DNA of 64,000 nt from Scenedesmus sp. PABB004. Lineage: Eukaryota. The position numbers and the translations under genes are program-made. Position 1 is the stretch's first letter; each line of letters begins with the position of its first letter. Location: positions 806,001 through 870,000 of the forward strand of contig JABVCE010000009.1 of assembly GCA_014905635.1 (NCBI GenBank), given 5' to 3'. The notes under the pieces were generated by a model. The model saw nothing but the letters and a program-made list of their open reading frames with translations. It had not been told where the DNA came from and searched no databases. Of this stretch, positions 41,844-64,000 are shown one piece after another.

Positions 41844-44800
41844 CTAGTCCAGCCCGGGCGGTGCCCAGCGGCTCCCGCGGCCCCCACCGCCGCCGCCGCC
41901 GCCCTGGCCCGCGCCACCGTGACCGCTGCCGTGCCAGCTGCGAGCTGGCTGGGAGCGGGACTGCTGCTGCACCTGCTGCACCGCCGCCGCCCGCGCCGGT
42001 GCGCGGCTGGGCTCGTCCGCGGCGGCACCGAGCACCAGCGCCCCGCCGTCGGGCTGCGGCGGCGCGAGCAGCGCGGCTGCCGGCGGCCCCCCGCCCGCCG
42101 CGCCCGGCGGCGGCGCGCCCGCCACGCCTGCGGGCAGCATCACCAGCTGCGGCTGCTGGCCGGGCCCGGCGGGGAAGCGCGCCGGCGGCTGGACCTGCTG
42201 CAACTGCAGCACCTGCGGCAGCTGCGCGCCGCCACCCAGTGGCAGCTGCTGCGGCCCCGACGCCGAATGCCCCGGCCCCGCCTGCGCCAGCGGCTGCCGC
42301 GCCAGCCCGAGCTGCCCGCCCTGCTCCTCCACGCCAGGCGCGCCCAGCTGCTGCGGCGCCGCCACCACCGCAGCCTGCGCCAGGCACGGCGCCAGCCAGG
42401 CGGCGTCGGCGGGCGCCATCTGCCGCAGCGCCGCGCCGCGCGCTTGCGGCGGCATGGCCTGCAGCAGCTGCAGCATCGACTGCTGAACCAGCGGTGCCAG
42501 GAGCCAATACACGGCGCCCTGCTCCGCAGACATGCCGCCGTAAGGCTGCGCGTCCTCCAGCGCCACGCCGTCACCCGCCGCCGCCGCCTGCGGCTGCTGC
42601 GGCTGCTGCGGCGGCTGCTGTGGCTGCTGCGGCGGCTGCTGCTGCGGCGGCTGCTGCTGCGGCGGCTGCTGCTGCGGCGGCTGCTGCTGCGGCTGCGCGC
42701 CCCCGTCTCCTGTGCCGCTGCTGTCGCCGCCCCCGCCGTCACCGGCACGCTGCCGCTTGTGCTCGCGGCCCTGCTGCGCCGCGGGCTCCTGCCGGCGCCT
42801 GAGCTCGGCCGCCCTGAGCTCGGCCTCCTGCCGCTCACGCATGGCCTGCAGCCAGTCCTTGCCGCCGCCGCCCTCGCCGCCCTCCGCGGGCGGCGGCGTG
42901 ACGGCGCGCCCGCGCTGGCGCTCCGCCGCCCCCGCCTCTGCCGCCGGCTGCTCCGCCGGGCGCTCGCGCTGCGGCGGCGGCGGGCCGCCCTGCTCCGCGC
43001 GCTCCGCCGCCGGCGCGGCGCGCTGCGCCGGCGCCATGGCCTCCTGCAGCTCCCGCCCCCGCGCGAGCGCCGCCGCGAGCGCCGCGCGGCCGCGCGGCGT
43101 CGTGAGCTGCTCGGGCCGCGCGTCCCAGGCGACCGCGCCGCGCGCGCCGGCGTCGGCGATCAGCGCCTCCCACGCGGGGTGCGCGACGAGCGTGTCGGCG
43201 TGGCCGAGCACGTACAGCGCCTGGCGCGCGCGCGTGATGGCCACGTTCATGCGCCGCGTGTCCGACAGGAACCCCACGCCGCGCCGCCCCAGCGCGAGCG
43301 GCGCGACCTGCTGGCCCTGCTGGCCCTGCTGGTCCGCAGGCGCCCCCTGTCCGCCGCCGGCGGCGGCGAGCCGCGCCGCGACCGCCGCACGCGCGGGGCG
43401 CGCGCGCGCGACGCCGCCGCCGCCGCCGCCGTTTGCCGGCGGCGCGCTCGCGCGCACGCAGGAGAGGATGACCACGTCCAGCTGCTTGCCCTGGAACGAG
43501 TCGACCGTCTCGATGCGCACCTCGGCCAGCACGCCGCGCCCAAACGCGGCCTCAAACGCGCGGCGCAGCAGCAGGCGCTGCGAGCGGTACGGCGTGATCA
43601 CGCCCACCTCGAGCCGCGCCAGCGCCGCGCCGCCGCCGCCCGGCGGCGTGGGCTCGCGCGACCCGGGCGCCCCGCCGCCCGCGCCGCCGGCGGCGGCGGC
43701 CGCCGCGGCGGCGGCCTCCGCCGCGGCCGCGCGCACGCGGCGCAGCTCGCCGTAGAGCGCGACGGCGAGCGCGGCCTCGGCCTCGTTCTCGGCGCTGCGC
43801 CCGCCGCGCGCAAAGCGCTCGCGGCCGCGCGAGACGTCAAACACGACGTACGGGATGAGCACGCCGGGCTCGCCGGGCGCGCCGCCGCCGCCGCCGGGCT
43901 CGCTGCCGCCACCAGGGCCCGGCGGCGGCAGCGGCGGCGGGTAGAGCCAGGGACGGGGGCGCGCCAGCACGCTGGGCGCGTCGAGCAGCGCGCCGCCGTA
44001 GAAGAAGGCTGAAGGGAAGGCCCGGATCGCTGGGTGCATGCGGTACTGCACGCGCAGCAGGTTGACTGGGCACCCCGCCTGCGGCGGCGGCGGCGCGGCG
44101 GCGCGGCGGCACGGCGGCGCGGCAGGGGAGTGAGAGCGAGGGGAGGGCTTTGGGAGAGCAGCGAGGGGGGCGCGCGGGGCGTACGGGAGCAGGGGTTCTC
44201 GGCGCGGGGCTCACCGCGGCCAGGCGCTCAAAGAGGCTGCGCTCGAGCGCGAGCTGCTTGGCGGCGGCGCTGAAGATGGTCGCCGGCAGCTGCTGCGGGT
44301 CGCCCACCATCACAACACACCTGGGCGCGCGCGGACGCGTGGGGGCCGGGCGCGGCGGCGCGCGAGCGCCGGCGGCGCGGGCGCGGCGGCGCGCTCACCG
44401 CGCGCCGTAGACGAGCGGCTGCAGCGCCGCGACCTCGGCCGCCTGCGCCGCCTCGTCGATGAGCACCAGCTCAAACGGCCGCGCCAGGCGGTCAAACACG
44501 TTGCGCGCGGCGCTCGAGAGCGTCGTGAACACCAGCTCCGCCTGCGGGACGAGACGGCGGCGGCGTGAGCGGCGCGGCGGCGCGGGCGGGCGCTGTGGCG
44601 CGGCCGCACGCGGCAGGGAGCGGCGGCGCGCCTGGTCAACGAACGAGACCTCCAGGTCCTGCTGCAGCCCCCGCGGCGCGGCGCGGAACGCGGCGCGCCA
44701 GAGGTCGGGCAGGTGCAGCGGCGGTGCCTGCTGCGGCGGCCCGCCGGGCGGCGGCGGCGCCTGCTGCGCCGCCGCGCGGCGCTGCTGCTCCTGCTGGATG

Positions 44801-47415
44801 GCCGCCAGCCGGCGGCCCCACTCGGCGGCGCGCTGGCCGGTGACCAAGCCTTCGACCATGCCCAGCCGCGCGAGCTCGGCCTGCGTGCGCTGCAGGGCCT
44901 CAAACTCGTTGACCATCGCGGCCACGAGCGCCGAGAGCTGCGCATCCTGCTCCGCCGTCGACTCGGCGGCCGCCGCCGCCGCCGCGGCGGGCGAGCCGTC
45001 CGGCCCGCGCAGCGCCGCCGCGACGCCGGCGGCGGCCCAGTCGCCCGCCGCGACGGCGGCGTGGTGCGCGACGAGGCGCTTGTGCGTGACGGCGAGCGAC
45101 TCGCCCACGTTGTGCATGCGCGCGAGGCAGGTGCGCCAGGCCGCGTGCTGCTCCGCCTGCTCCGCCGCGAACGTGGCGGGGCTGTGCGAGAGCAGCCGCC
45201 CCGAGAGCTGCTCCACCCACACCTGGCGCGCCTCGTCGCTCAGCGCCTCCTCGCTGCCCAGCCGCACCACGTGCGGGCGGTAGACCTGGCCGTTCACGTC
45301 GCGGAACGTGCCGCTGCGCGTGTGGCGGCACGGCGACAGCGCGGCGGCGGCGTCGGCTGCAGCTTGGAGGCGAGGCGGGTGGCGGCTGCGCACGCGCGCA
45401 GACACCACGGCGCGGCGGCGGCGGCGGCGCGCACCGCAGGATGCGCTCCAGCAGCTCGTCGATCGCGGCGTTGCTCGGCGCGCACACGAGGATGCGCGGC
45501 CGCGGCGCGAGGCGCGCCGGGAAGGCGTCCGACACCATCTCCACGTCTGCGGCGCGGCGCGGCGGCATCGGCGCCGTCGGCGCTGGCCACGCGCCACCGC
45601 CGCCGCGCTCGGCCGGCACGGGCACACGCGCGCCGCGCACAGCCCCCCGGCCGTGCACAGCCCCGCGCACGGCCCCAGCCGCGCCGCTCACCGAGCGCGA
45701 CGCGCGCGTCGGCGGCGCCGCGCACCGCGGCGTCGAGGCTGTGATAGAAGCGCTGGAACTGCACCAGGTGCCACGTGTTGAGCACGCCCAGCACGGTGTG
45801 CGTCTTGCCCGTGCCGGGCGGGCCCTGGATCAGAGTGAACGGCGCGCCGCCGCCGCCGGGCGTGGCGGCGCTGTCGACGGCGCCGTCGCCGCCGGGCGGC
45901 TCGCCGGCGCCCGCCGGCTCGGCGTCGCTGCTCGCCGGCGTGAGCTCGCTGCCGCTGTCTTCCAGGCCCGCCGTGAGCTGCGCGACGCGGCGCCACTGCG
46001 GGCGGCGCGCCCGCGCCGCCCCTGCCTGCGCCGCCGCCGCGCCGCGCCGCGGCGCTGCCAGGTGCGCTGCGCTGCAGGTGATCGCCTGGATCTGGGGGCC
46101 GTCAAAGTGTGCCTGCAGGAAACCCCAGAACCCGCTGCTGCTCACCTCCGGCGGCAGCTCGGGCGCCTGCTGCGCCCGCTGCGCCTGCTGCGCCTGCTGC
46201 GCCTGCTGCGCCTGCTGCGCCCGGTCCCCCGGGTCAAGAATGTACTGCAGCAGCGGCAGGCGCCCCACCCGCGACAGCGTGCGCAGCTCGCGCGTGGCGG
46301 TGACGATCGAGCCGGCGGGTGCGAGGCGCCAGGCGCCCTGCGGCTGCGACTCCAGCAGCTCCAGCACCTGCGGCGCGGCGCGGCGCGCGCGGCGGCGGCA
46401 GGGCGCGAGGCGTCGCGCGGCGGACCGCGCAGCCGCCGCCGACCCCGGCGCGGGGCGTCGCCCGCCTCCGCCGCACCTGGCAGCACGGGCTGCTGGGGTC
46501 GTCCGGGTGACGCCCGCAGCAGGGTCGGATGTGCACGTGCACCGCGCCCTCGTCCAGCTCCCAGCGCCGCACCAGCCCCGTGACGCGCGCGACCACGCGC
46601 GGCTGCGCCGGCGGCGTCCGCCGCGCGCCGCCGCCCGGCTGCGGGTCTGGCGCGCCGCCGCCGGCGTCTGCGCTGAGGCTCAGCACCACCACCGCCGCGT
46701 CCTTGTCCGCATGCAGCGCGCGCAGCGCCGGCAGCGCGTCCTGGCTGGGCGCCGCGAGGCGCACGTTGCGCCAGTGGTTGCCGAGCGGCGCCACCCTGCG
46801 CGCGGGCGCGATGCGCGTGCGGGCGTGGGCGCGGGCGGCTTCGGCGGCGGCGCGGCGCGGCGCAGCCCAGCGGGCGGCTGGCCGCCGAGGGCGCGGCGCG
46901 CTGCGGCGGCGCGGCGGTGCCGCCACTCACAGCTGCACGGCCACCGGCGCGCCGCGCCCCGCGCGCTCCGCCTCCTCAAAGCCGCTGCGGATGGCCTCGG
47001 CCGCCTCCTCAAGCAGCAGCGGCTCAAAGGTGCGCAGGTACTGCGCCGCACTCGCAAACACGGCGGGCACCGCGTCGGGCAGCGGCGGCGCGAGCGCCTG
47101 GCACGCCGCCTCCCACAGCCGCCCGCTGACGACCTCCGCCTCCAGCGTGGAGGCGCTGGCGACCTCGTCCCTGTGCTGGCCGCCGCGCCCGCCGGCGCCG
47201 CGCCCGCCGGCGCCCCGGCCGCCGGCGCCGCTGTCCTGCCGGGCCCCGCCGGGCTGCGGCGCGCCGCCCGGCTCGCCACCGGCGCCGCCGACGCGCGGCC
47301 GCCGCTCGCGCCCGCGGCGAGGGCGGTTGTTGGCGTGCGTGGGCAGCTGCGTGCCGTCCACCAGCATCGCCGCCGTGCGGGCGGCGTGGCCGCGGAAGGC
47401 CGCGCCGTCGTCCAT
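41844..47415 (-). CDS. Senataxin/SEN1-like SF1 RNA/DNA helicase (DNA2/NAM7 family)
   Basis: YLRTFEPLLLEE, TLIQGPPGTGKT, ILVCAPSNAAIDE, VLIDEAAQ, VGDPQQLPAT, SLFERL, QYRMHP, VITPY, TVDSFQG and RRMNVAITRAR. The start is tentative. Confidence 0.92.
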
Positions 47416-47930: not shown

Positions 47931-50900
47931 TCACCGCCGCCCGCCGAGGTGCGAGGGCACGGCCGCCATGAAGCCGCCGCCCTCGTACGGCGTGAGCGAC
48001 ATGGGGCTCCCGCCCAGCAGCGGGCTGCTGCCGGGCGCGCCGCCGGCGCCGGCGAGGCCGTCCATCATCAGCGCGCCAGGGGAGAGGCCGTACGAGCCGC
48101 CGCCGGGGCTGTAGCTCAGCCCCGGGCCGCCGCGGCCGCCGGGGCGGCCGCCGAAGAAGCCGCCGGCGGCGGCGAGCGACGTGGCCATGAGGTCAGGCGA
48201 CGGCCCCGACGGCCCCGACGACAGCCCCCCGCCCGCGGCGCCCGCCGCGGCCGCGGCGGCGAGGCCGACCGGCACGACGCGCCCGCGCGCGCGCCCGTGC
48301 GCGTGGCGGCCCGTGCCGGGCGCCGCGGCCGAGCCGGGCGCGGCGGCGGCGGCGGCGGCGGCGTGGTGGTGGTCGTCGTCGTCGTCACTGCTGCTGCTAC
48401 TGCTGCTGCTGCTGTCGTCGTCGGCGCCCGCCTCCTCACGGCTGCGCAGCCGGCCGCGCCCGGCGCCGTCCGGCGAGGCGGCGGCCGCGGCGCGCGCGAG
48501 CAGCGCCGCCTCGTCGTCCAGACCGCCGTCCGAGTCGCTGTCGCTGTCGCTGCCGCTAGCGCTGCTGCCGCCCACGGCGCCGCCGGCGCCGCCGGGCGCC
48601 GCGCCCGCGCCGCCGGCGTGCGGCTGGCCGTGGGAGAAGCAGACGTACGTGGTCGGCAGGTCCAGGAAGCGGCTGCTGCGCTGCAGCAGGTAGGGATCAA
48701 ACGGAAAGAACACCTCCAGCGGCCGCAGCACGGGGCGCGCCGGCCCCGCGCCGGCGTCGCCGGTGTCGTCGGGCGCGCCGACCACGACCGCGGCGGCGGC
48801 CGACGTCGCCGCCGCGACGGCGGCCGCGTGCGCGGCGACCGCGTCGAGCGCGGCCGCCTCCCACGCCTCGTCCGCGAGGCCCAGCAGCAGCGCCTGGCGC
48901 ACAAACTCGTGCGTGACCGCCTGGTGGCACACCGCGAGCGGCGCGAGCGGGTGGCTCAGCAGCGGCAGCACCTGCTGCCGCACCAGCGCCGCGACCTCGC
49001 CCGCGAGCGCCGCCGCGTCGGGCGCCGCCTGCGCCTGCGCCTGCGCTGCCTGCGCCGCCGCGCCCTGCTGTGCGTGCTGCACGCCCAGCAGGGGCTGCAT
49101 GTGGTAGCACAGCAGATAGAGCAGGGCCTGGACAACGGCGTAAAACGCCTGGTGCCGCTGCACCACCGCGAGCGCACCGGCGCTGCCGCTCGCGCTCGCG
49201 CCGCCGGGGCCGCCCCTGAGCAGCACGAGCGCGCCGCCGCTGCCGCTGCGGCCGAGGGCGCCGCCCGCGGCCGCGGCCGCGGCGTAGTCGGACGCGACGC
49301 CCGCCAGCTTGCGCAGCACCTCGACCACGAGCGGCCGCGGCGCGGGCGCGCAGCGCGCGAGGAAGCTGCCGAGGTAGGCCGCCGCGGCGGCGCGCGTGAT
49401 GGGCGGCTGCCGCGCGTCGCGCAGGTGCGACATGAGGCACGTCGCGAGGCTCGCGCAGCAGCGGAGCGGGTCCTTGGTGGCCAGGAAGAAGACCAGGTAC
49501 TGCGTGAACTTGCAGCGGTGCGCGTGCAGCAGCGTGCGCTCAAACGCGCCCAGCATCGTCTGCCACACCGCGCCGAGCTGGCCTGCGCGCGCGGCGCGCG
49601 GCGCGGCGGGGGTGGCGAGGCGGGCGGGGTGGCGCGGCCGTGTGGTGCAGCTGCAGCGGGGCGCGGCGCGGCCGCGCGGCGGCCGCACGCGGCGCGGGCG
49701 GGGCGCGCACCCGCGTCGACGCGGCGCTGCAGGTGCTCGAACGCCATCTCCATCAGGCTGTCCAGCTTGTCCGCGGTCTCGTCCACAGCCGGCCGGCGCC
49801 GCTCGGCCGCGCCGCCGCGGCCGCCGCGGCCGCCGGCGCCGGCAAACTCCGAGGGGTCGTGGAAGCCGTCCTGCAGCGCGGCAAGCTGCGCCGCGAGGCC
49901 GCCGCCCGCGCCGCCGGCGCCGGCGCCGCCGTGGCCGCCGGCGCCGTGCGGCGCGCCGCTGATGTCGAGGCCCTCCATCGCCTCCAGCTCGAAGATGTCG
50001 TCGCCCGCCTCGTCGTCGGAGGAGCCCTCCTCGCGGTCGTACGGCGTCGGCGCGTCGACGATCTCCTCCCACTTGATGTCGGCGTCGATCGACAGCAGGT
50101 GCTCGACCACGCCCGAGAGCAGGCCCTCGCGCAGCGACCGCCCCACGCGGCCCTCGGCCAGCAGCAGCACGCCGCGCATGAAGAGGCACTGCGTGCCCCG
50201 GTCGCGCAGCTTGTGGGGCATGTTGGACACGAGCATCGGCAGCAGCCGCGTTGGCAGCGCCGGCACCAGCTGCACCGCCTGCGCGCGGCGGGCGCGGGCG
50301 CGGGCGCGGCAGCGGCGGCGGCAGCAGCGTGAGCGCGCCGCGCCGCGCCGCGCCGTGCAGGCGCTGGCGGCAGCGCCGGCCAGCCGCGGAGCCGACTGGA
50401 CGCGTGTGCTCTGCGACGCGTCGCTCACCTTTTCGATCGCGTCCACCACGTCTGCCTGCACCTCGACCGCCAGCTGCGGTGGCGTCCACGGCGCGCCGCG
50501 CTCGTCCGGCTCCAGCGGCGGGCTGCCGGGCGGCGGCAGGAGGTTGAACAGCAGCACCTGTGACGAGCCGGGGCGGGGCGCGGGGGCGGCGCGTCAGCGC
50601 CGCGTCGCTCGGGGCCGCGCCTGCCAGGCCGCCGCCGCGGCGGCTGCCGCGCGACCGCGACCGCGCGCGCCTGCATGCAGTTTGGGATGAACGTGCTGCT
50701 CGCGACCACCAGCTCCACCGTGAGCTCCAGCACCGCCTCGCGCACGGCCTGGCGGCGCGGCGCGGCGCGGCGCGGTGGGTGCGTCGGCGGGCGGGCGCCG
50801 CGCGGCCGGCGCCGGCGCGGGAGCCGGACCGCGCGCCCGCACCGGCGTGCAGCTCCAGAGCGGCGTGCTGAGCACGGTGGTGAGCACCGCGTCGTGCGCG

Positions 50901-51449
50901 CCCTCGCGCAGGCTCGACGCGCAGCCGCGCAGCGCGTCCAGCAGGGCGACATAGCTGAACTCCGCCGGCGCGTCCGCCGCCGTCTCCAGCTTGCGCCGCA
51001 GCGACTGCAGCTCCTTCACGAAGCTGCGCAGGCGTGAGCGCGGCGGCGGCGGCGCCGGCGGCGGCGCGCGGGGTCGGCGGAGTGACCGGCGGCAGCGCCG
51101 CGGCTGCTGCCGGCCGCGGCGCGGCGCCGCGCGGGCCCGCGGCCCGCTGGAGCGCGTGCTGAGGTGCCTGCTGCGCGCGGCGGTGGGTTTGGGATCCCGG
51201 CGGGCCCGCGGCGCGCACTTGTTGTACAGGGGCGATGCCGGCCCCCTGGCGCGCCCCGCCAGGGCGGCGGCGACATGCTGCCGCAGCGCCTTGGCATGTG
51301 CGGCGGCCTCTGCGAGCGCACGCGCACCGCGGCGTGAGGCGCGGGGGTCGCTGCGCGGCGCGGCGGGCGCTGGCGAGCGCCGCACCCGGCTTGTCGCCCT
51401 GCGACTGGCGGCGCATGCCGTCGCTACTACTACTGCGCGCGCCCGGCAT
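47931..51449 (-). CDS. RRN3: RNA polymerase I-specific transcription initiation factor RRN3/TIF-IA
   Basis: HLLSIDADIKWEEI, ADKLDSLM, HRCKFTQYLVF, AAAAYLGSFLAR, FYAVVQALLYLLCY and LEVFFPFDPYLLQRS. Confidence 0.92.
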   Translation of the reverse strand: MPGARSSSSDGMRRQSQGDKPGAALASARRAAQRPPRLTPRCACARRGRRTCQGAAAACRRRPGGARQGAGIAPVQQVRAAGPPGSQTHRRAQQAPQHALQRAAGPRGAAPRPAAAAALPPVTPPTPRAAAGAAAAALTPAQLREGAAVAAAQAGDGGGRAGGVQLCRPAGRAARLRVEPARGRARRGAHHRAQHAALELHAGAGARSGSRAGAGRAAPARRRTHRAAPRRAARPCARRCWSSRWSWWSRAARSSQTACRRARSRSRGSRRGGGLAGAAPSDAALTRRPRAPPRLVTGAAVQPPAAARQPAAGAGRARRAVDATAAGGRGAGRRGGRDRKGERRVAEHTRPVGSAAGRRCRQRLHGAARRGALTLLPPPLPRPRPRPPRAGGAAGAGAANAAAADARVQHAPQAARPGHAVPLHARRAAAGRGPRGAVAARGPALGRGRAPAVDRRRHQVGGDRRRADAVRPRGGLLRRRGGRRHLRAGGDGGPRHQRRAARRRRPRRRRRRRRGRRPRGAACRAAGRLPRPLGVCRRRRPRRPRRRGRAAPAGCGRDRGQAGQPDGDGVRAPAAPRRRGCAPRPRRVRPPRGRAAPRCSCTTRPRHPARLATPAAPRAARAGQLGAVWQTMLGAFERTLLHAHRCKFTQYLVFFLATKDPLRCCASLATCLMSHLRDARQPPITRAAAAAYLGSFLARCAPAPRPLVVEVLRKLAGVASDYAAAAAAGGALGRSGSGGALVLLRGGPGGASASGSAGALAVVQRHQAFYAVVQALLYLLCYHMQPLLGVQHAQQGAAAQAAQAQAQAAPDAAALAGEVAALVRQQVLPLLSHPLAPLAVCHQAVTHEFVRQALLLGLADEAWEAAALDAVAAHAAAVAAATSAAAAVVVGAPDDTGDAGAGPARPVLRPLEVFFPFDPYLLQRSSRFLDLPTTYVCFSHGQPHAGGAGAAPGGAGGAVGGSSASGSDSDSDSDGGLDDEAALLARAAAAASPDGAGRGRLRSREEAGADDDSSSSSSSSSDDDDDHHHAAAAAAAAPGSAAAPGTGRHAHGRARGRVVPVGLAAAAAAGAAGGGLSSGPSGPSPDLMATSLAAAGGFFGGRPGGRGGPGLSYSPGGGSYGLSPGALMMDGLAGAGGAPGSSPLLGGSPMSLTPYEGGGFMAAVPSHLGGRR

Positions 51450-51819
51450 GCCTCATCAGCGGCGCGGGAGGCGCCGGCGCCGGCAGCACAGCGGCGGGGC
51501 AGCGGCGGGCGCCGGCGCTGCTCGCGGCGCGCGGCGGACGGCGCGCGGCGGACGGCGCGCGGCGCGGCGGCGGCGGCGGCGCGGACTCCGGCGGGCGGGG
51601 TGCCAGGAGTCGCTCTCGGGCGGCGGCGCCGGCCGCCGACCACCGCGCTTGCGCGAACGCCGCTCGAGGGTTCTGCCGCACGAACGCGCCTGTCGCGGCG
51701 GCTGCCGTCGCCGCACGGGCCCCCTCCCTGCCACATACTCGCTCCGCGGCGTGCGGCACGGGGTCAGCAGCGCATGCGCGGCGGCCGCAGCGCGGGCGTG
51801 CCGCCGCCGCTGCTCCGCG

Positions 51820-59800: not shown

Positions 59801-61816
59801 GGGGGGGCGGCACGCGCTGCGTCGGCAGCGAGCCGCGCGGCGAGGCCCACCTCAGCAGGCAGCTGAGCTACGACGGGGGCGGCGCGCACAGCGCCATGTC
59901 GCCGCCGCCTGCGCGCTCGGCGGCCGCCACGGCCGCCAGGCGCAGCAGCGCAGGCACGGCACCGGGCCAGAGCGGCGGCGGCGGCGCGGCTCGGACGCCC
60001 CTCGCGCGCGGGCCGCACACCTGGGAGGCGGGCGCGGCGTGGGACGCGCTCGCCAGCGGCAGCTGCAGCAAGCCCGGCGCCAGCCAGCAGCGCAGCGCGG
60101 GGCCAGACGCAGCCGCGGCGGGCGGCTTTGCGGCGGCTGCTGCGGCGGTCGCGGGCGAGCTGGGCATGGCGCTGACGCCCCGCCACGCTCGCGCCGCGGA
60201 GCACAGCAGCGCCGAGCCCAGCAGTGGCGCGGTCGGGGGCCAGGCCTTTGCCCGCCGCAAGCGCCGCCGCGGCGCGGGGGCGGTGCTGCTGACCCAGGCG
60301 CCACCGGCGTCGCCGGGCACTGCCGGCGGGAGCGGCGACGAGGCGGAGGTGCTGGCAGACGCCGGCGCCGACGGCGCCGCGGGGCGGCCGGCCGCCCGGC
60401 CGCGCTCGCGGCGGCTGCAGCGCGCCGCCTGCGCGGCGGCGCCGCCGCCGGTGGCGCGCGGCGCCAGGCCCCCCGACGGGCCCGGCCCGCCGCCCAGGGC
60501 GGCGGCGGCGCGCGGCGGCGGGCGCGCGCCCCGGCGCTGGTGCGTCGCCGCTGCCGCGCCACGCCGCGCCGCGCGCTTCGGCAGCGCGGCCGCGGCCCGC
60601 GTGCTCACCGCCCGCCGCCGCCCTGTCGCCGCAGTGCGTTCGTTGAGGAGGCGGCCGCCGACAGCGGCGGCAGCGGCGACAGCGGCGACAGCGGCGATGA
60701 GGGCGAGGGCGAGGAGGACGACCTGTCGGGCTTCATCACCTCCGGCACCGACGCCACCGCCACGCCGCGCAGCGCCGCGCGGCGGCGCAGCGGCGCCACC
60801 GAGCGGTGCGCCGCCGCGGCACGGCGCCCGCCGCCGCGCCGCGCCCGGCGCCGCCACCGCGCCGCGGGGGCCGACTGCGCGCCGCCGCCGCCCCCGCGCC
60901 CGGCCCGTGCCGCTCGCAGCTCCACGCCCGGCCTCGACCTGTACCACCGCTCGCTGCTGTCGCCGACGCCGCGCCGCGCCGGCGGCCACGTCGACATGTG
61001 GGCGCTGGTCAACGGCCGCCGCCGCGCGCCGCCGCGCCCCGGCGGCGCCGGCGCAGGCGCGGCGGACCGCGCCGCGCCCGGCGGCGCCGGCAACCCGCTG
61101 CTGGAGAGCCCCAGCCCCGGCGGCCGCGGCGCCGGCGAGCCGCAGGGCTTCTGCATGACCCTCGCTGACACGCCGAGCTGGTACAAGGCCGCCGGCGAGG
61201 CCGACGAGTACGAGTCGGACGAGTCGGACGGCAGCGGCGCCAGCGGCAGCGAGGAGGACGAGGGCGAGGCGGCCCAGCAGGAGGAGGAGGAGGAGGCGGC
61301 GGGCGCCGGGCCGCGGCGGGGCGCCGCGCGGCAGCGGCGGCACCAGCCGGCGGCCAGCGAGGAGGACGAGGGCGAGGGCATTGAGGAGGCGTCGTCTGAC
61401 GAGGGCTGCGGCGCGCAGCTGCGCCGGGGGCGCCGCGCCGCGGCGCCGCGGCCGCGCGCGGCGGCGGCGGGCGCCGCGGCGAGGTGGTGGTCATCTGCGG
61501 CAGCAGCGACGAGGAGGGCGGCGAGCTGGCGGACAGCAGCGGCGACGAGCGCGGCGGCGGCGCCGCGGCCGGCGCAGGCGCCGCGGCGCGGGGCCGGCGC
61601 GCCGGGCCGCGGCGCGTGGTGCACAGCGAGAGCGAGAGCGAGCCCGGCTGCGGCAGCGCCAGCAGCCACGACGACGCGTGCGCGCTGTGCCGCGGCGACG
61701 GCGAGCTGCTCATGTGCGACGGCTGCCCGCTGAGCTTCCACCTCGCCTGCGTGGGCCTGCGCGCGGTGCCGGACGGCGAGTGGCTGTGCCGCGTGTGCCA
61801 GGGCGGCGGCTACTGA
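51820..61816 (+). CDS. FANCM: FANCM/Mph1-family DEAH helicase/translocase with long disordered region, MM3-like motif and terminal PHD finger
   Basis: RSYQFDI...[64 protein letters not shown] and QRMGRTGR. The acidic motif FVEEAA...DLSGFI...LYHRSLLSP is at ~60640-60965 and the PHD is at ~61670-61800. TGTAA is at 61973. Linking the PHD needs a frame correction at 61390-61484. Confidence 0.88.
52327..52383 (+). repeat. (CAG)19 poly-Gln tract in the FANCM N-terminus
   Basis: Read directly from the sequence. Confidence 0.9.
56314..56341 (+). repeat. Interstitial telomeric repeat (CTAAACC)x4, i.e. TTTAGGG type, inside a FANCM intron
   Basis: ctaaacc x4 is followed by ctgacctcag, whose AG acceptor is at 56350-56351. 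Confidence 0.9.
58705..58962 (+). repeat. Coding tandem repeat, 102-bp unit (34 aa), about 2.5 copies
   Basis: [32 protein letters not shown] units start at 58705, 58807 and 58909. Confidence 0.92.
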
Positions 61817-62034: not shown

Positions 62035-62407
62035 TCAGCGCCGCTGCCATTCCCGGCCGCGCTGCGACTCCCGGTCTGGCTGCCCGTCCCTGCCGCCGCG
62101 CGGCCGGTCGCCGCCGCCCGCCCTGCCGCGGCTGGCCTCGTCGGCGGCGCGCGGCGGCGTGCGCTGCCGGGGCGGCGCGCTGCCGCAGCTGCTGCTGGTG
62201 CCTGGCCTGCCGCTGCGGCCCGGCCGCTGCCGCTCGGGGCTCCTGCTGCTGGGGCTCCGGCTGCGCTTGGCGCCGGTGCCAGCACCCCTGTGCTGCTGCT
62301 CCTGCTCGCCGTTGTGCGGGGCGCCCGCCGTCACGTCCCGCAGTGCGCCCGGGCCGCCACCCCCAGGCTGCCGGTGCTGCTGGTGCGCTGGCGGCGGCCC
62401 CCGGGGG

Positions 62408-62478
<71 letters not shown>

Positions 62479-63247
62479 GTGCTGCTGCGACGGCGGCGGG
62501 GGCCGCTGCGCCAGCTGCGGCGCCGCCCGCCCGCCGGCCGCCGCGCCACGCTGCTGCTGCTGCCCGCCGCCGCCGCTGCCGCGCGCCGCCTGCGCCTTGA
62601 GCGTGACCAGCTCGAGCCGCGACGCCGAGAGCTGCGCCGCGTGGCGCTTGAGCTCCGCCTGCGCCGTCTTGAAGAGGCTGCTCATGTTGGTCAGGAGCAC
62701 CAGGCGCTCCGCCGACAGCTGCTGCACCTGTGGCGGCCGCGGCAGGTCGGGGCGGCGCGGCCGCTGGCGGGCGACGCCGGGCCGGCCGCGCCGCCGCCGC
62801 ACCTGCGCGTCCCGCGCGGCCAGCTCGGCGCGCAGCTCGTCGAGCGCCGCATCGCGCGCCGCCAGCTCCTCCCGCAGCTGCGGCAGCGCCGGGGCGACCG
62901 GGCGTCGGCGCAAGCCAGGCCGGCCGGCGGCCGTGCCGCGCCGCCCCTGCGCCGCCGCCGCGCGGCGCGCACCTCAGCGAGCTGCTCGCGCTGCTGCCGC
63001 ACGACGATGCCCTCGCGCTCGGCGTCGCCGTCGTCCGCCCAGCCTGCGGAGCGGCGGTCCGGGTCGATCGCCACACGCCGGGCGGGCGGGCGCGGCCGCA
63101 GGGTGCCTCACCGCCCTCCAGGCCGGCGTAGAGGTCTGCGGCATCGTCAGACTCCGCTGCCGCCTCGCCGGCGGCCCCCGGCGGGAGGGGCGCGGTCGGG
63201 TCGGCCAGAATGCATTCTGGGGCCACTGGTGACGGCGCCAGCGCCAT
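62035..63247 (-). CDS. Coiled-coil protein resembling the FLASH/CASP8AP2 N-terminal domain, with Gln- and RS-rich tail
   Basis: Four exons joined by GT-AG introns give ADLYAGLEG...coiled coil...LLTNMSSLFKTAQAELKR, then poly-Q and KRSRSPSSRSPER. The family call is from remembered motifs only. Confidence 0.65.
62410..62475 (-). repeat. (CAG)22 poly-Gln tract
   Basis: Read directly as (CTG)n on the + strand. Confidence 0.88.
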
Positions 63248-63577
63248 GACCCGGGGCGCCGGGGATGCGCCCGGCGGGCGGCGGCGCCGGCAGCGGCCGC
63301 GGCAGCAGCTGGCGCGGTGCAGGCAGGGCCCGGCGGCGTGTCGTCGCCCCGGTGGGTGCCGTGGCTCTTTGTGCGCGGCAGCGGCTGCGGGGAGCGGCAC
63401 ACGGCATTGTGTCACGCTCGTGCCCGCCCAGTCGAACGCCGCCGGCGGCGGTGCGGCTCGCGCCGGCCAGAGTCCCCTGCGCAACGCGCATCCCTCTCGT
63501 CCCGGCACGCTGCCGGCTGGTGTCTGAGCCGGCCGTGAGGAAGCGCCGCCGCGGTCAACCCAATCGCCCGGCGGTCG

Positions 63578-64000
63578 ATGGGCTGCGCGCTGTCGCGCGG
63601 CCGCCGCCGCGCGCGCGCCTACGTGGCGCCGCGCGACGCCGGCGACGCGCCGCCGCCGCGCAAGGTGCGCCGGCAGCGTGCGCGCGGCGGCCGCGGCTCG
63701 CTCCCGTGCAGCCTGACCTCGCGCCGCTGCGCGCCCCGCAGGCCGCGCACCGCTGCTGCTGCATCACGGCGGACGCGCGGGAGCGGGCGGCAGCAGAAGC
63801 GGCGGCGCCGGCCGGCGGCGCCGCCGCGCTAGGGCCGCGCGCCGCGCCAGCTGCTGCTCCCCCCAGGCAGCGCCTGGACCAAGCCGACTTCACCTTCTCT
63901 GGCCTACGCGGCGCGACCGCCGTGAAGCTGCCGGGGTGCGCGCGCGCCCCTGCGCACGCCGCGCGGCAGCCCAGGCCCGCGGCACGCCGTCGCACGCCGC
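63578..64000 (+). CDS. RP2: 5' part of an RP2/XRP2 homolog (TBCC-domain ARL3 GAP)
   Basis: Exon 1 begins MGCALSR, a dual acylation motif. The exon at 63871-63935 reads RLDQADFTFSGLRGATAVKLPG, resembling the RP2 segment [20 protein letters not shown] as I recall it. The gene is truncated by the window end. Confidence 0.72.

Follow-up and report, generated by a model that had tools for sequence, protein, structure and literature searches.

We find that a short gene of the green alga Scenedesmus sp. PABB004 is predicted to encode a protein that is, with very little room for doubt, homologous to the domain at the N-terminus of FLASH (CASP8AP2), the protein that in animals binds Lsm11 and the histone cleavage complex. 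The gene runs from 63247 to 62035 on the minus strand of the window, by which we mean the whole stretch of 64,000 nucleotides that was analysed (assembly GCA_014905635.1, contig JABVCE010000009.1, positions 806,001 to 870,000 of the forward strand), and all coordinates below refer to this window. Judged by its sequence, we have here a real nuclear gene that is spliced and belongs to a green alga very rich in GC (about 80%). Its predicted product conserves the two functional elements known from the FLASH N-terminus, an LDLY-type motif and the segment that binds Lsm11, and is the N-terminal processing module alone. That these parts hold together, namely a real spliced gene, a homologue of the FLASH N-terminus and a role in U7-type processing of histone mRNAs, we consider moderately probable.

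The homology emerges at the level of profiles. A phmmer search of PDB with the single 50-residue core sequence returned no matches, and a profile was therefore needed. The first 55 residues of exon 4, used as query in a word-indexed search, found three proteins among 88 candidates (E values of 3e-10 to 2e-6). The closest relative, P0004 (176 aa), is a full-length homologue that carries DLYADL, a coil and then the same motif, all in one chain, and shows 51% identity with the window protein across 104 columns. A profile made from a four-row alignment of algal core sequences (A1) was compared with 177,635 distinct PDB sequences, of which three matched at E≤10. Ranked first and second was the human CASP8AP2 N-terminal domain (6ANO, 6e-4; 6AOZ/6AP0, 6.5e-4), and the third was an unrelated portal protein (E 1.7); the alignment sets the algal motif on human NISALIKTARVEINRK. 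The same profile matched 93 of 1.84 billion representative proteins at E≤1e-3, and 91 of these together with the row of the window's exon 4 were combined into a second profile of 92 rows (A2), leaving out P0044, of which only the first 31 residues matched, and P0061, a six-stretch coiled coil. With A2, which contains animal members and so is not independent of animal FLASH, CASP8AP2 was matched in PDB at E 3.4e-13 and the next best protein at 2.1e-3, a gap of 10 orders of magnitude, and the alignment with CASP8AP2 starts at LDLY and takes in the whole coil. Among the matches listed, A2 also retrieves the CASP8AP2 proteins of frog (1836 aa) and whitefly (1996 aa).

Comparison of a green-only profile (12 rows, the joined window protein included) with an animal-only profile (8 rows) by hhalign gave a probability of 99.0% and an E value of 6.3e-18 over 92 columns, which again begin at DLY and continue until the coil ends. 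The reversed animal alignment reached 0.6% and 20 column shuffles at most 0.3%; as these controls keep the composition and yet reach at most 0.6%, coiled-coil composition fails to explain the match. In the ESM Atlas the nearest cluster to P0004 was "C8AP2 protein (Fragment)" of chordates (0.95, 178/256 features), followed by an oomycete cluster. The original prediction, made from the DNA letters alone, had taken the gene for a minimal algal FLASH and had named a resemblance reaching no further than a generic coiled coil as one outcome that would undo it; this was put to the test in the searches described here and the homology to FLASH survived.

Human FLASH has been described to form a parallel coiled-coil dimer through residues 71-137, of which a segment (residues 100-139) binds the N-terminal domain of Lsm11 in a 2:1 complex. 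LDLY (residues 55-58) sits in a flexible helix that precedes the dimer and is required for binding of the histone cleavage complex; the double substitution L118A/I119A abolishes Lsm11 binding and leaves the FLASH dimer intact (PMC5636114). The algal protein shares with animal FLASH (human N-terminal domain 51-137; 6ANO, 6AOZ, 6AP0) the order of an acidic stretch, D-[LI]-Y, a linker and a long helix. Its DLYAGL (residues 38-43; 63136-63119, minus strand) is the counterpart of human LDLY: D38-L39-Y40 aligns with human D56-L57-Y58, as the dLYgDL columns of the alignment between A2 and PDB fall on LDLY of 6AOZ/6ANO, and hhalign pairs the DLY on the window's side with the DLY of frog FLASH. The three residues D, L and Y are conserved in 81%, 82% and 100% of the rows, respectively (21-22 aligned rows per column). 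Further downstream, a coiled coil of ~85 residues carries LLTNMSSLFKTAQAELKR (residues 105-122; 62697-62644, minus strand), the counterpart of human NISALIKTARVEINRK (residues 114-129, numbered with Tyr73 as anchor in the alignment between A1 and PDB). The algal segment N108..H123 aligns with human N114..K129 with 8 of 16 residues identical, L112/F113 occupy the positions of human L118/I119, and all six family columns that are invariant or at least 90% conserved are present in the window row. The subgroup to which the window protein belongs has K-R-H in place of the R-K-[DN] of most of the family. Thus the arrangement noticed at the outset, DLYAGL followed by a coiled coil carrying LLTNMSSLFKTAQAELKR, is indeed encoded on the minus strand.

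A model of two copies of the corresponding stretch of P0004, the homologue and not the window protein itself, gave an ipSAE of 0.51 compared to 0.00 for the best control, a score that shows likeness rather than binding and that the predictor may owe to the solved FLASH dimers present in PDB. Of the proteins with solved structures, 21 of 30 pairs and none of 23 single chains attained the mark applied to ipSAE. In the prediction the two chains run parallel and their contacts are in register (i with i); the runs agree in at least 90% of the contacts at a predicted local distance difference test (pLDDT) value of at least 81, and the L-F pair lies in the interface, like L118/I119 in the crystal structure of animal FLASH. 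Four conserved residues of the motif, S, K, T and R (89%, 61%, 99% and 96% conserved), lie outside the interface of the model; this exposed, conserved face therefore suggests a surface for binding a partner.

The gene model on which the protein rests consists of four exons and three GT..AG introns, and the exons joined by script give a coding sequence of 975 nt that is in frame, carries a single terminal stop and specifies 324 residues. Translation would start at the ATG at 63247-63245, the first ATG in phase with a reading frame that stays open as far as 63763, and would end at the TGA at 62037-62035. Exon 1 (63247-63112; 45 codons and one base) encodes the acidic N-terminus with DLYAGL and is followed by a GTGAGG donor from 63111. 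Exon 2 (63043-62973; 71 nt), which is preceded by a CAG acceptor at the end of intron 1 (63111-63044; 68 nt), encodes an acidic linker and the start of the helix. After intron 2 (62972-62878; 95 nt) the 25 codons of exon 3 (62877-62803; 75 nt) provide the middle of the coiled coil, and after intron 3 (62802-62728; 75 nt) exon 4 (62727-62035) provides its end with the conserved motif, a low-complexity tail and the stop codon. Intron 3 is itself in frame and, if read through, would add 25 Arg/Pro-rich residues within the coil. Scored against a hidden Markov model of 82 database relatives, with no window sequence among them, the four-exon product obtained 89.9 bits in one domain (residues 30-145), compared to 78.9 bits when intron 3 was retained, 58.6 bits when exon 3 was skipped and 0.8 bits when exon 2 was skipped and the frame lost. 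Moreover, the AG acceptor of intron 3 is found at the identical codon in three of three loci, the window and the metagenome loci L001 and L002, whose cores are 55-58% identical to that of the window; the shared acceptor lies 13 codons (39 nt) before the invariant Asn, and the homology ends upstream of it. A search of sequencing runs matched three DNA metagenome runs (0.07-0.14 of the sampled words) and no RNA run was among them, so that the support for the gene model is comparative. As a side observation, L001 is a metagenome contig of 2724 nt, and the database protein P0013 is apparently an intron read-through prediction of its gene, with 70 N-terminal residues that are unlike the family and end at the conserved acceptor site.

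The length of the window protein is in marked contrast to the about 1800-2000 residues of animal FLASH, and the parts by which the animal protein reaches the histone genes were looked for. In animals, the SANT/Myb-like domain binds NPAT and brings FLASH to histone locus bodies (PMC5636114; PMC7432317), and an ARS2-binding motif, E[DE]GE[ILV], is reported in the FARB region (10.1101/2022.01.19.476877). Exon 4 up to the stop codon, only ~220 bp short of where the convergent neighbour ends, has no match to the SANT/Myb-like domain (PF21227), a domain that frog FLASH (P0107) carries at E 2.3e-21, and the window protein does not contain the strict ARS2 motif. As both are absent, any targeting to histone genes must differ from that in animals, and the attribute "minimal" given to this FLASH is borne out. 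YARP/GON4L, described as the animal paralogue of the C-terminal SANT/Myb domain of FLASH (PMC7432317), has nothing detectable in common with the algal protein; YARP has the C-terminal domain of FLASH and the algal protein only the N-terminal one. An EDGEI-type ARS2 motif in the acidic linker was considered and rejected, as only a loose DDGDA at residue 49, encoded by exon 2, is present and this is not a feature of the family. Among 124 motif-bearing sequences the strict ARS2-type motif occurs in four, including frog and mosquito FLASH and the Raphidocelis protein P0007, in which residues 32-46 hold two strict ARS2-type motifs, DDGDI and DDGEI, in the acidic linker around DIY. This is a hint that the N-terminus of some algal mini-FLASH proteins may serve to bind an ARS2/SERRATE homologue.

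The relatives of the window protein extend well beyond green algae. A motif of the type N-[ILMV]-S-x-L-x-x-T-A is present in 79 of the 93 proteins matched by A1, and D[LIVM]Y precedes it in 33 of the 55 matches that have at least 60 upstream residues. Names were recovered for part of the relatives only, from a cluster look-up of 30 proteins and the listed matches of two further searches. The chlorophytes so named are Volvox carteri (VOLCADRAFT_117560, P0027), Astrephomene (P0021), Pleodorina (P0064), Chlamydomonas schloesseri (P0016), Monoraphidium minutum (P0006), Raphidocelis subcapitata (Rsub_01531, P0007), Parachlorella (P0076), Trebouxia sp. (P0078) and Myrmecia. Those listed with an identifier share with the window protein a short plan in which an N-terminal DLY is followed by the motif-bearing coil and then by a tail of low complexity (108-455 aa), and their N-terminal domains are 30-41% identical to that of the window protein. 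The values are similar for the Sphaeropleales Raphidocelis (41%) and Monoraphidium (40%) and the volvocine Astrephomene (39%) and Volvox (36%), and do not mark the alga as volvocine. Members outside chlorophytes are Klebsormidium (a streptophyte alga), Ascophyllum (a brown alga), Vitrella (a chromerid) and Andalucia (a jakobid), and animals are represented by two mites, a scale insect, a whitefly, a mosquito, a coral and a frog. One of the mite proteins matched by A1 is named "CASP8-associated protein 2-like"; the non-animal members are nearly all labelled "hypothetical", and the Trebouxia protein in GenBank is named "CASP8 associated protein 2". No embryophyte appears among the members named in this way, a sampling too thin to show absence.

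By analogy with animal FLASH we propose that residues ~58-143 would form a parallel, in-register coiled-coil dimer and that the conserved face around NMSSLFKTAQAELKR would bind the N-terminal extension of Lsm11 in a U7-type small nuclear ribonucleoprotein (snRNP). The platform made by the coil, together with the flexible DLYAGL, would then recruit the cleavage module, i.e., CPSF73, CPSF100, symplekin and CstF64, which would cut the histone pre-mRNA past its 3' stem-loop and leave a non-polyadenylated histone mRNA, as in the animal pathway summarised in PMC12774660. The analogy suggests that the alga may cut its histone mRNAs in the animal way. A preprint of October 2026 reports stem-loops and purine-rich downstream elements in the histone genes of Chlamydomonas and Volvox, and homologues of LSM10 and LSM11 in several lineages, green algae and stramenopiles among them (10.64898/2026.10.14.759114), and PMC5054213 mentions algal histone mRNAs that are not polyadenylated. 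These reports help the case for a U7-type role.

Three other explanations have to be weighed. The window has a G+C content of 74-81% in each 4-kb bin, about 80% throughout, and across its six frames 145 stretches of 250 aa or more are free of stops; therefore a long open reading frame is not in itself a sign of a gene in this genome. As open frames overlap in several phases at this locus, one could argue that the FLASH-like frame is an accident of DNA of 80% GC and no gene at all. We consider this extremely improbable, as the joined product is recognised by the independent hidden Markov model, is colinear across four exons with canonical GT..AG introns and shares an intron position with both metagenome loci, and as its homologues include annotated algal proteins and a transcript-derived one (P0010) from the Marine Microbial Eukaryote Transcriptome Sequencing Project (MMETSP). 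It is also conceivable that the gene encodes a generic coiled-coil protein whose likeness to FLASH is a chance motif match. The empty single-sequence search of PDB is in line with this, as are the weak generic coiled coils that A2 draws (E 2e-3 to 1) and the Pfam scans of the exon products, in which nothing exceeded the curated cut-offs and only sub-threshold coiled-coil or low-complexity matches were seen. However, in the A2 search CASP8AP2 stands far ahead of all other PDB proteins, the algal-only A1 puts it at the top and gives no other PDB protein an E value below 1, none of the 21 composition-keeping controls approaches the score of the true hhalign comparison, and the DLY motif, which is not helical, is matched as well and in colinear order, making a chance match very unlikely.

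The third explanation accepts the homology and places the function elsewhere: the protein would be a FLASH homologue acting outside U7-dependent histone processing, for example as a dimeric adaptor that takes CPSF73/CPSF100/symplekin to other RNA polymerase II transcripts, or in a cell-cycle or transcription role, and the histone role of the animal protein would be derived. The family reaches beyond the lineages in which U7 is documented, to the jakobid, the chromerid, the brown alga and the oomycete cluster, its short forms do not have the SANT/Myb domain that links animal FLASH to histone loci, and other roles have been reported for animal FLASH itself (PMC4169604). Yet the best-conserved part of the family is the very segment that binds Lsm11 in human FLASH, including the solvent-exposed S, K, T and R, and since the preprint reports LSM10 and LSM11 from lineages that include green algae and stramenopiles, the wide distribution is compatible with a U7-type role. 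On balance we regard a function outside U7-dependent processing as a possibility to be taken seriously, and the less probable one. Several observations weigh against a FLASH homologue acting in U7-type processing. Pfam lacks a model, and hence a curated threshold, for the FLASH N-terminus and is therefore unable to test membership; the N-terminus of frog FLASH likewise falls below the Pfam cut-offs, and only its C-terminal Myb_DNA-binding_7 is recognised. The first Leu of LDLY is Ala in the window protein, the ion pair K129/D130 of human FLASH is replaced by H/A, and the dimer was modelled with the homologue and not with the window's own protein. To these are added the missing SANT/Myb match and strict ARS2 motif, and the result of Rfam, which at its gathering score gave no matches in the 64-kb window, neither a histone stem-loop nor U7, a result that does not speak for the remainder of the genome.

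How far this is new should be seen in the light of the same preprint, which reports FLASH to be widely present outside animals (10.64898/2026.10.14.759114) and which is the only work that does so in the literature found on FLASH/CASP8AP2 with algae, plants or orthologues. As this report and the annotation of the Trebouxia protein exist, FLASH outside animals is not new as a concept. The passages of the preprint consulted here describe no algal protein, and its figure 2 and supplements may list some. The description of the system as under-described in the original prediction is therefore only partly true: FLASH, LSM10 and LSM11 had been reported outside animals and one algal entry already bore the name. 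What we add is a description of how the short form is built, the mapping of its residues to the elements that bind the histone cleavage complex and Lsm11, and the breadth of the short forms from jakobid to brown algae.

U7 snRNP-dependent formation of histone 3' ends is regarded as metazoan, green algae have stem-loop, non-polyadenylated histone mRNAs, and the machinery that processes these mRNAs in green algae has so far had no experimental characterisation. A short protein that keeps exactly the two elements of FLASH, with orthologues in Volvox and in one Chlamydomonas species, offers a handle on the question whether algae employ a bridge between Lsm11 and FLASH to direct CPSF73 onto histone transcripts. 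Domain libraries currently miss the FLASH N-terminal domain, with no Pfam model and with algal members mostly labelled hypothetical. That the FLASH N-terminal module was not invented by animals and is instead an ancient eukaryotic protein in its own right, such that histone cleavage guided by U7/Lsm11 and bridged by FLASH dates to about the last common ancestor of eukaryotes, is an attractive thought to which we give somewhat less than an even chance. If true, a "mini-FLASH" of 100-450 residues survives in chlorophytes, streptophyte algae, brown algae, a chromerid and a jakobid, the huge FLASH of animals with its ARS2- and NPAT-binding parts is a later elaboration, and the algal gene represents a minimal, genetically tractable version of the adaptor.

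The remainder of the window protein is a low-complexity C-terminal tail (residues 146-324; 62574-62038, minus strand), rich in Q, R, G, P and S and with no recognisable domain. It consists of a poly-Q run of 22 residues (179-200) and an R/G/S/P-rich segment, unlike animal FLASH. The poly-Q and its flanks are encoded by a CAG-type trinucleotide repeat at 62408-62488 (minus strand), found by Tandem Repeats Finder with 27 copies and 94% matches, which is likely to be a site of length polymorphism. A tail rich in RS had been predicted. The tail exists and the RS richness was overstated, as it holds only five RS/SR dipeptides, between residues 249 and 294, and one small RS cluster, and is otherwise rich in Q, R, G and P.

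Next to the start of the FLASH-like gene lies a divergent open frame on the plus strand (63539-63999) with no Pfam match; the ATG of this frame at 63579, from which a product starting with MGCALS would be made, is ~330 bp from that of the FLASH-like gene, and the two may form a head-to-head pair with a shared promoter. The convergent neighbour on the plus strand ends in a PHD finger (61400-61816, stop codon at 61814-61816; PF00628, E 4e-9; NSD-type PHD, E 1.2e-10), which may form the C-terminal end of one very long gene whose start is marked by DEAD/Helicase_C matches at ~53.4-56.3 kb. Two more genes of the minus strand were recognised in the window, the RNA polymerase I initiation factor RRN3 (47934-51452, E 4.9e-43) and an AAA_11 superfamily-1 helicase (44398-46679, E 1.1e-16), and both are split across frames, which suggests that they contain introns.

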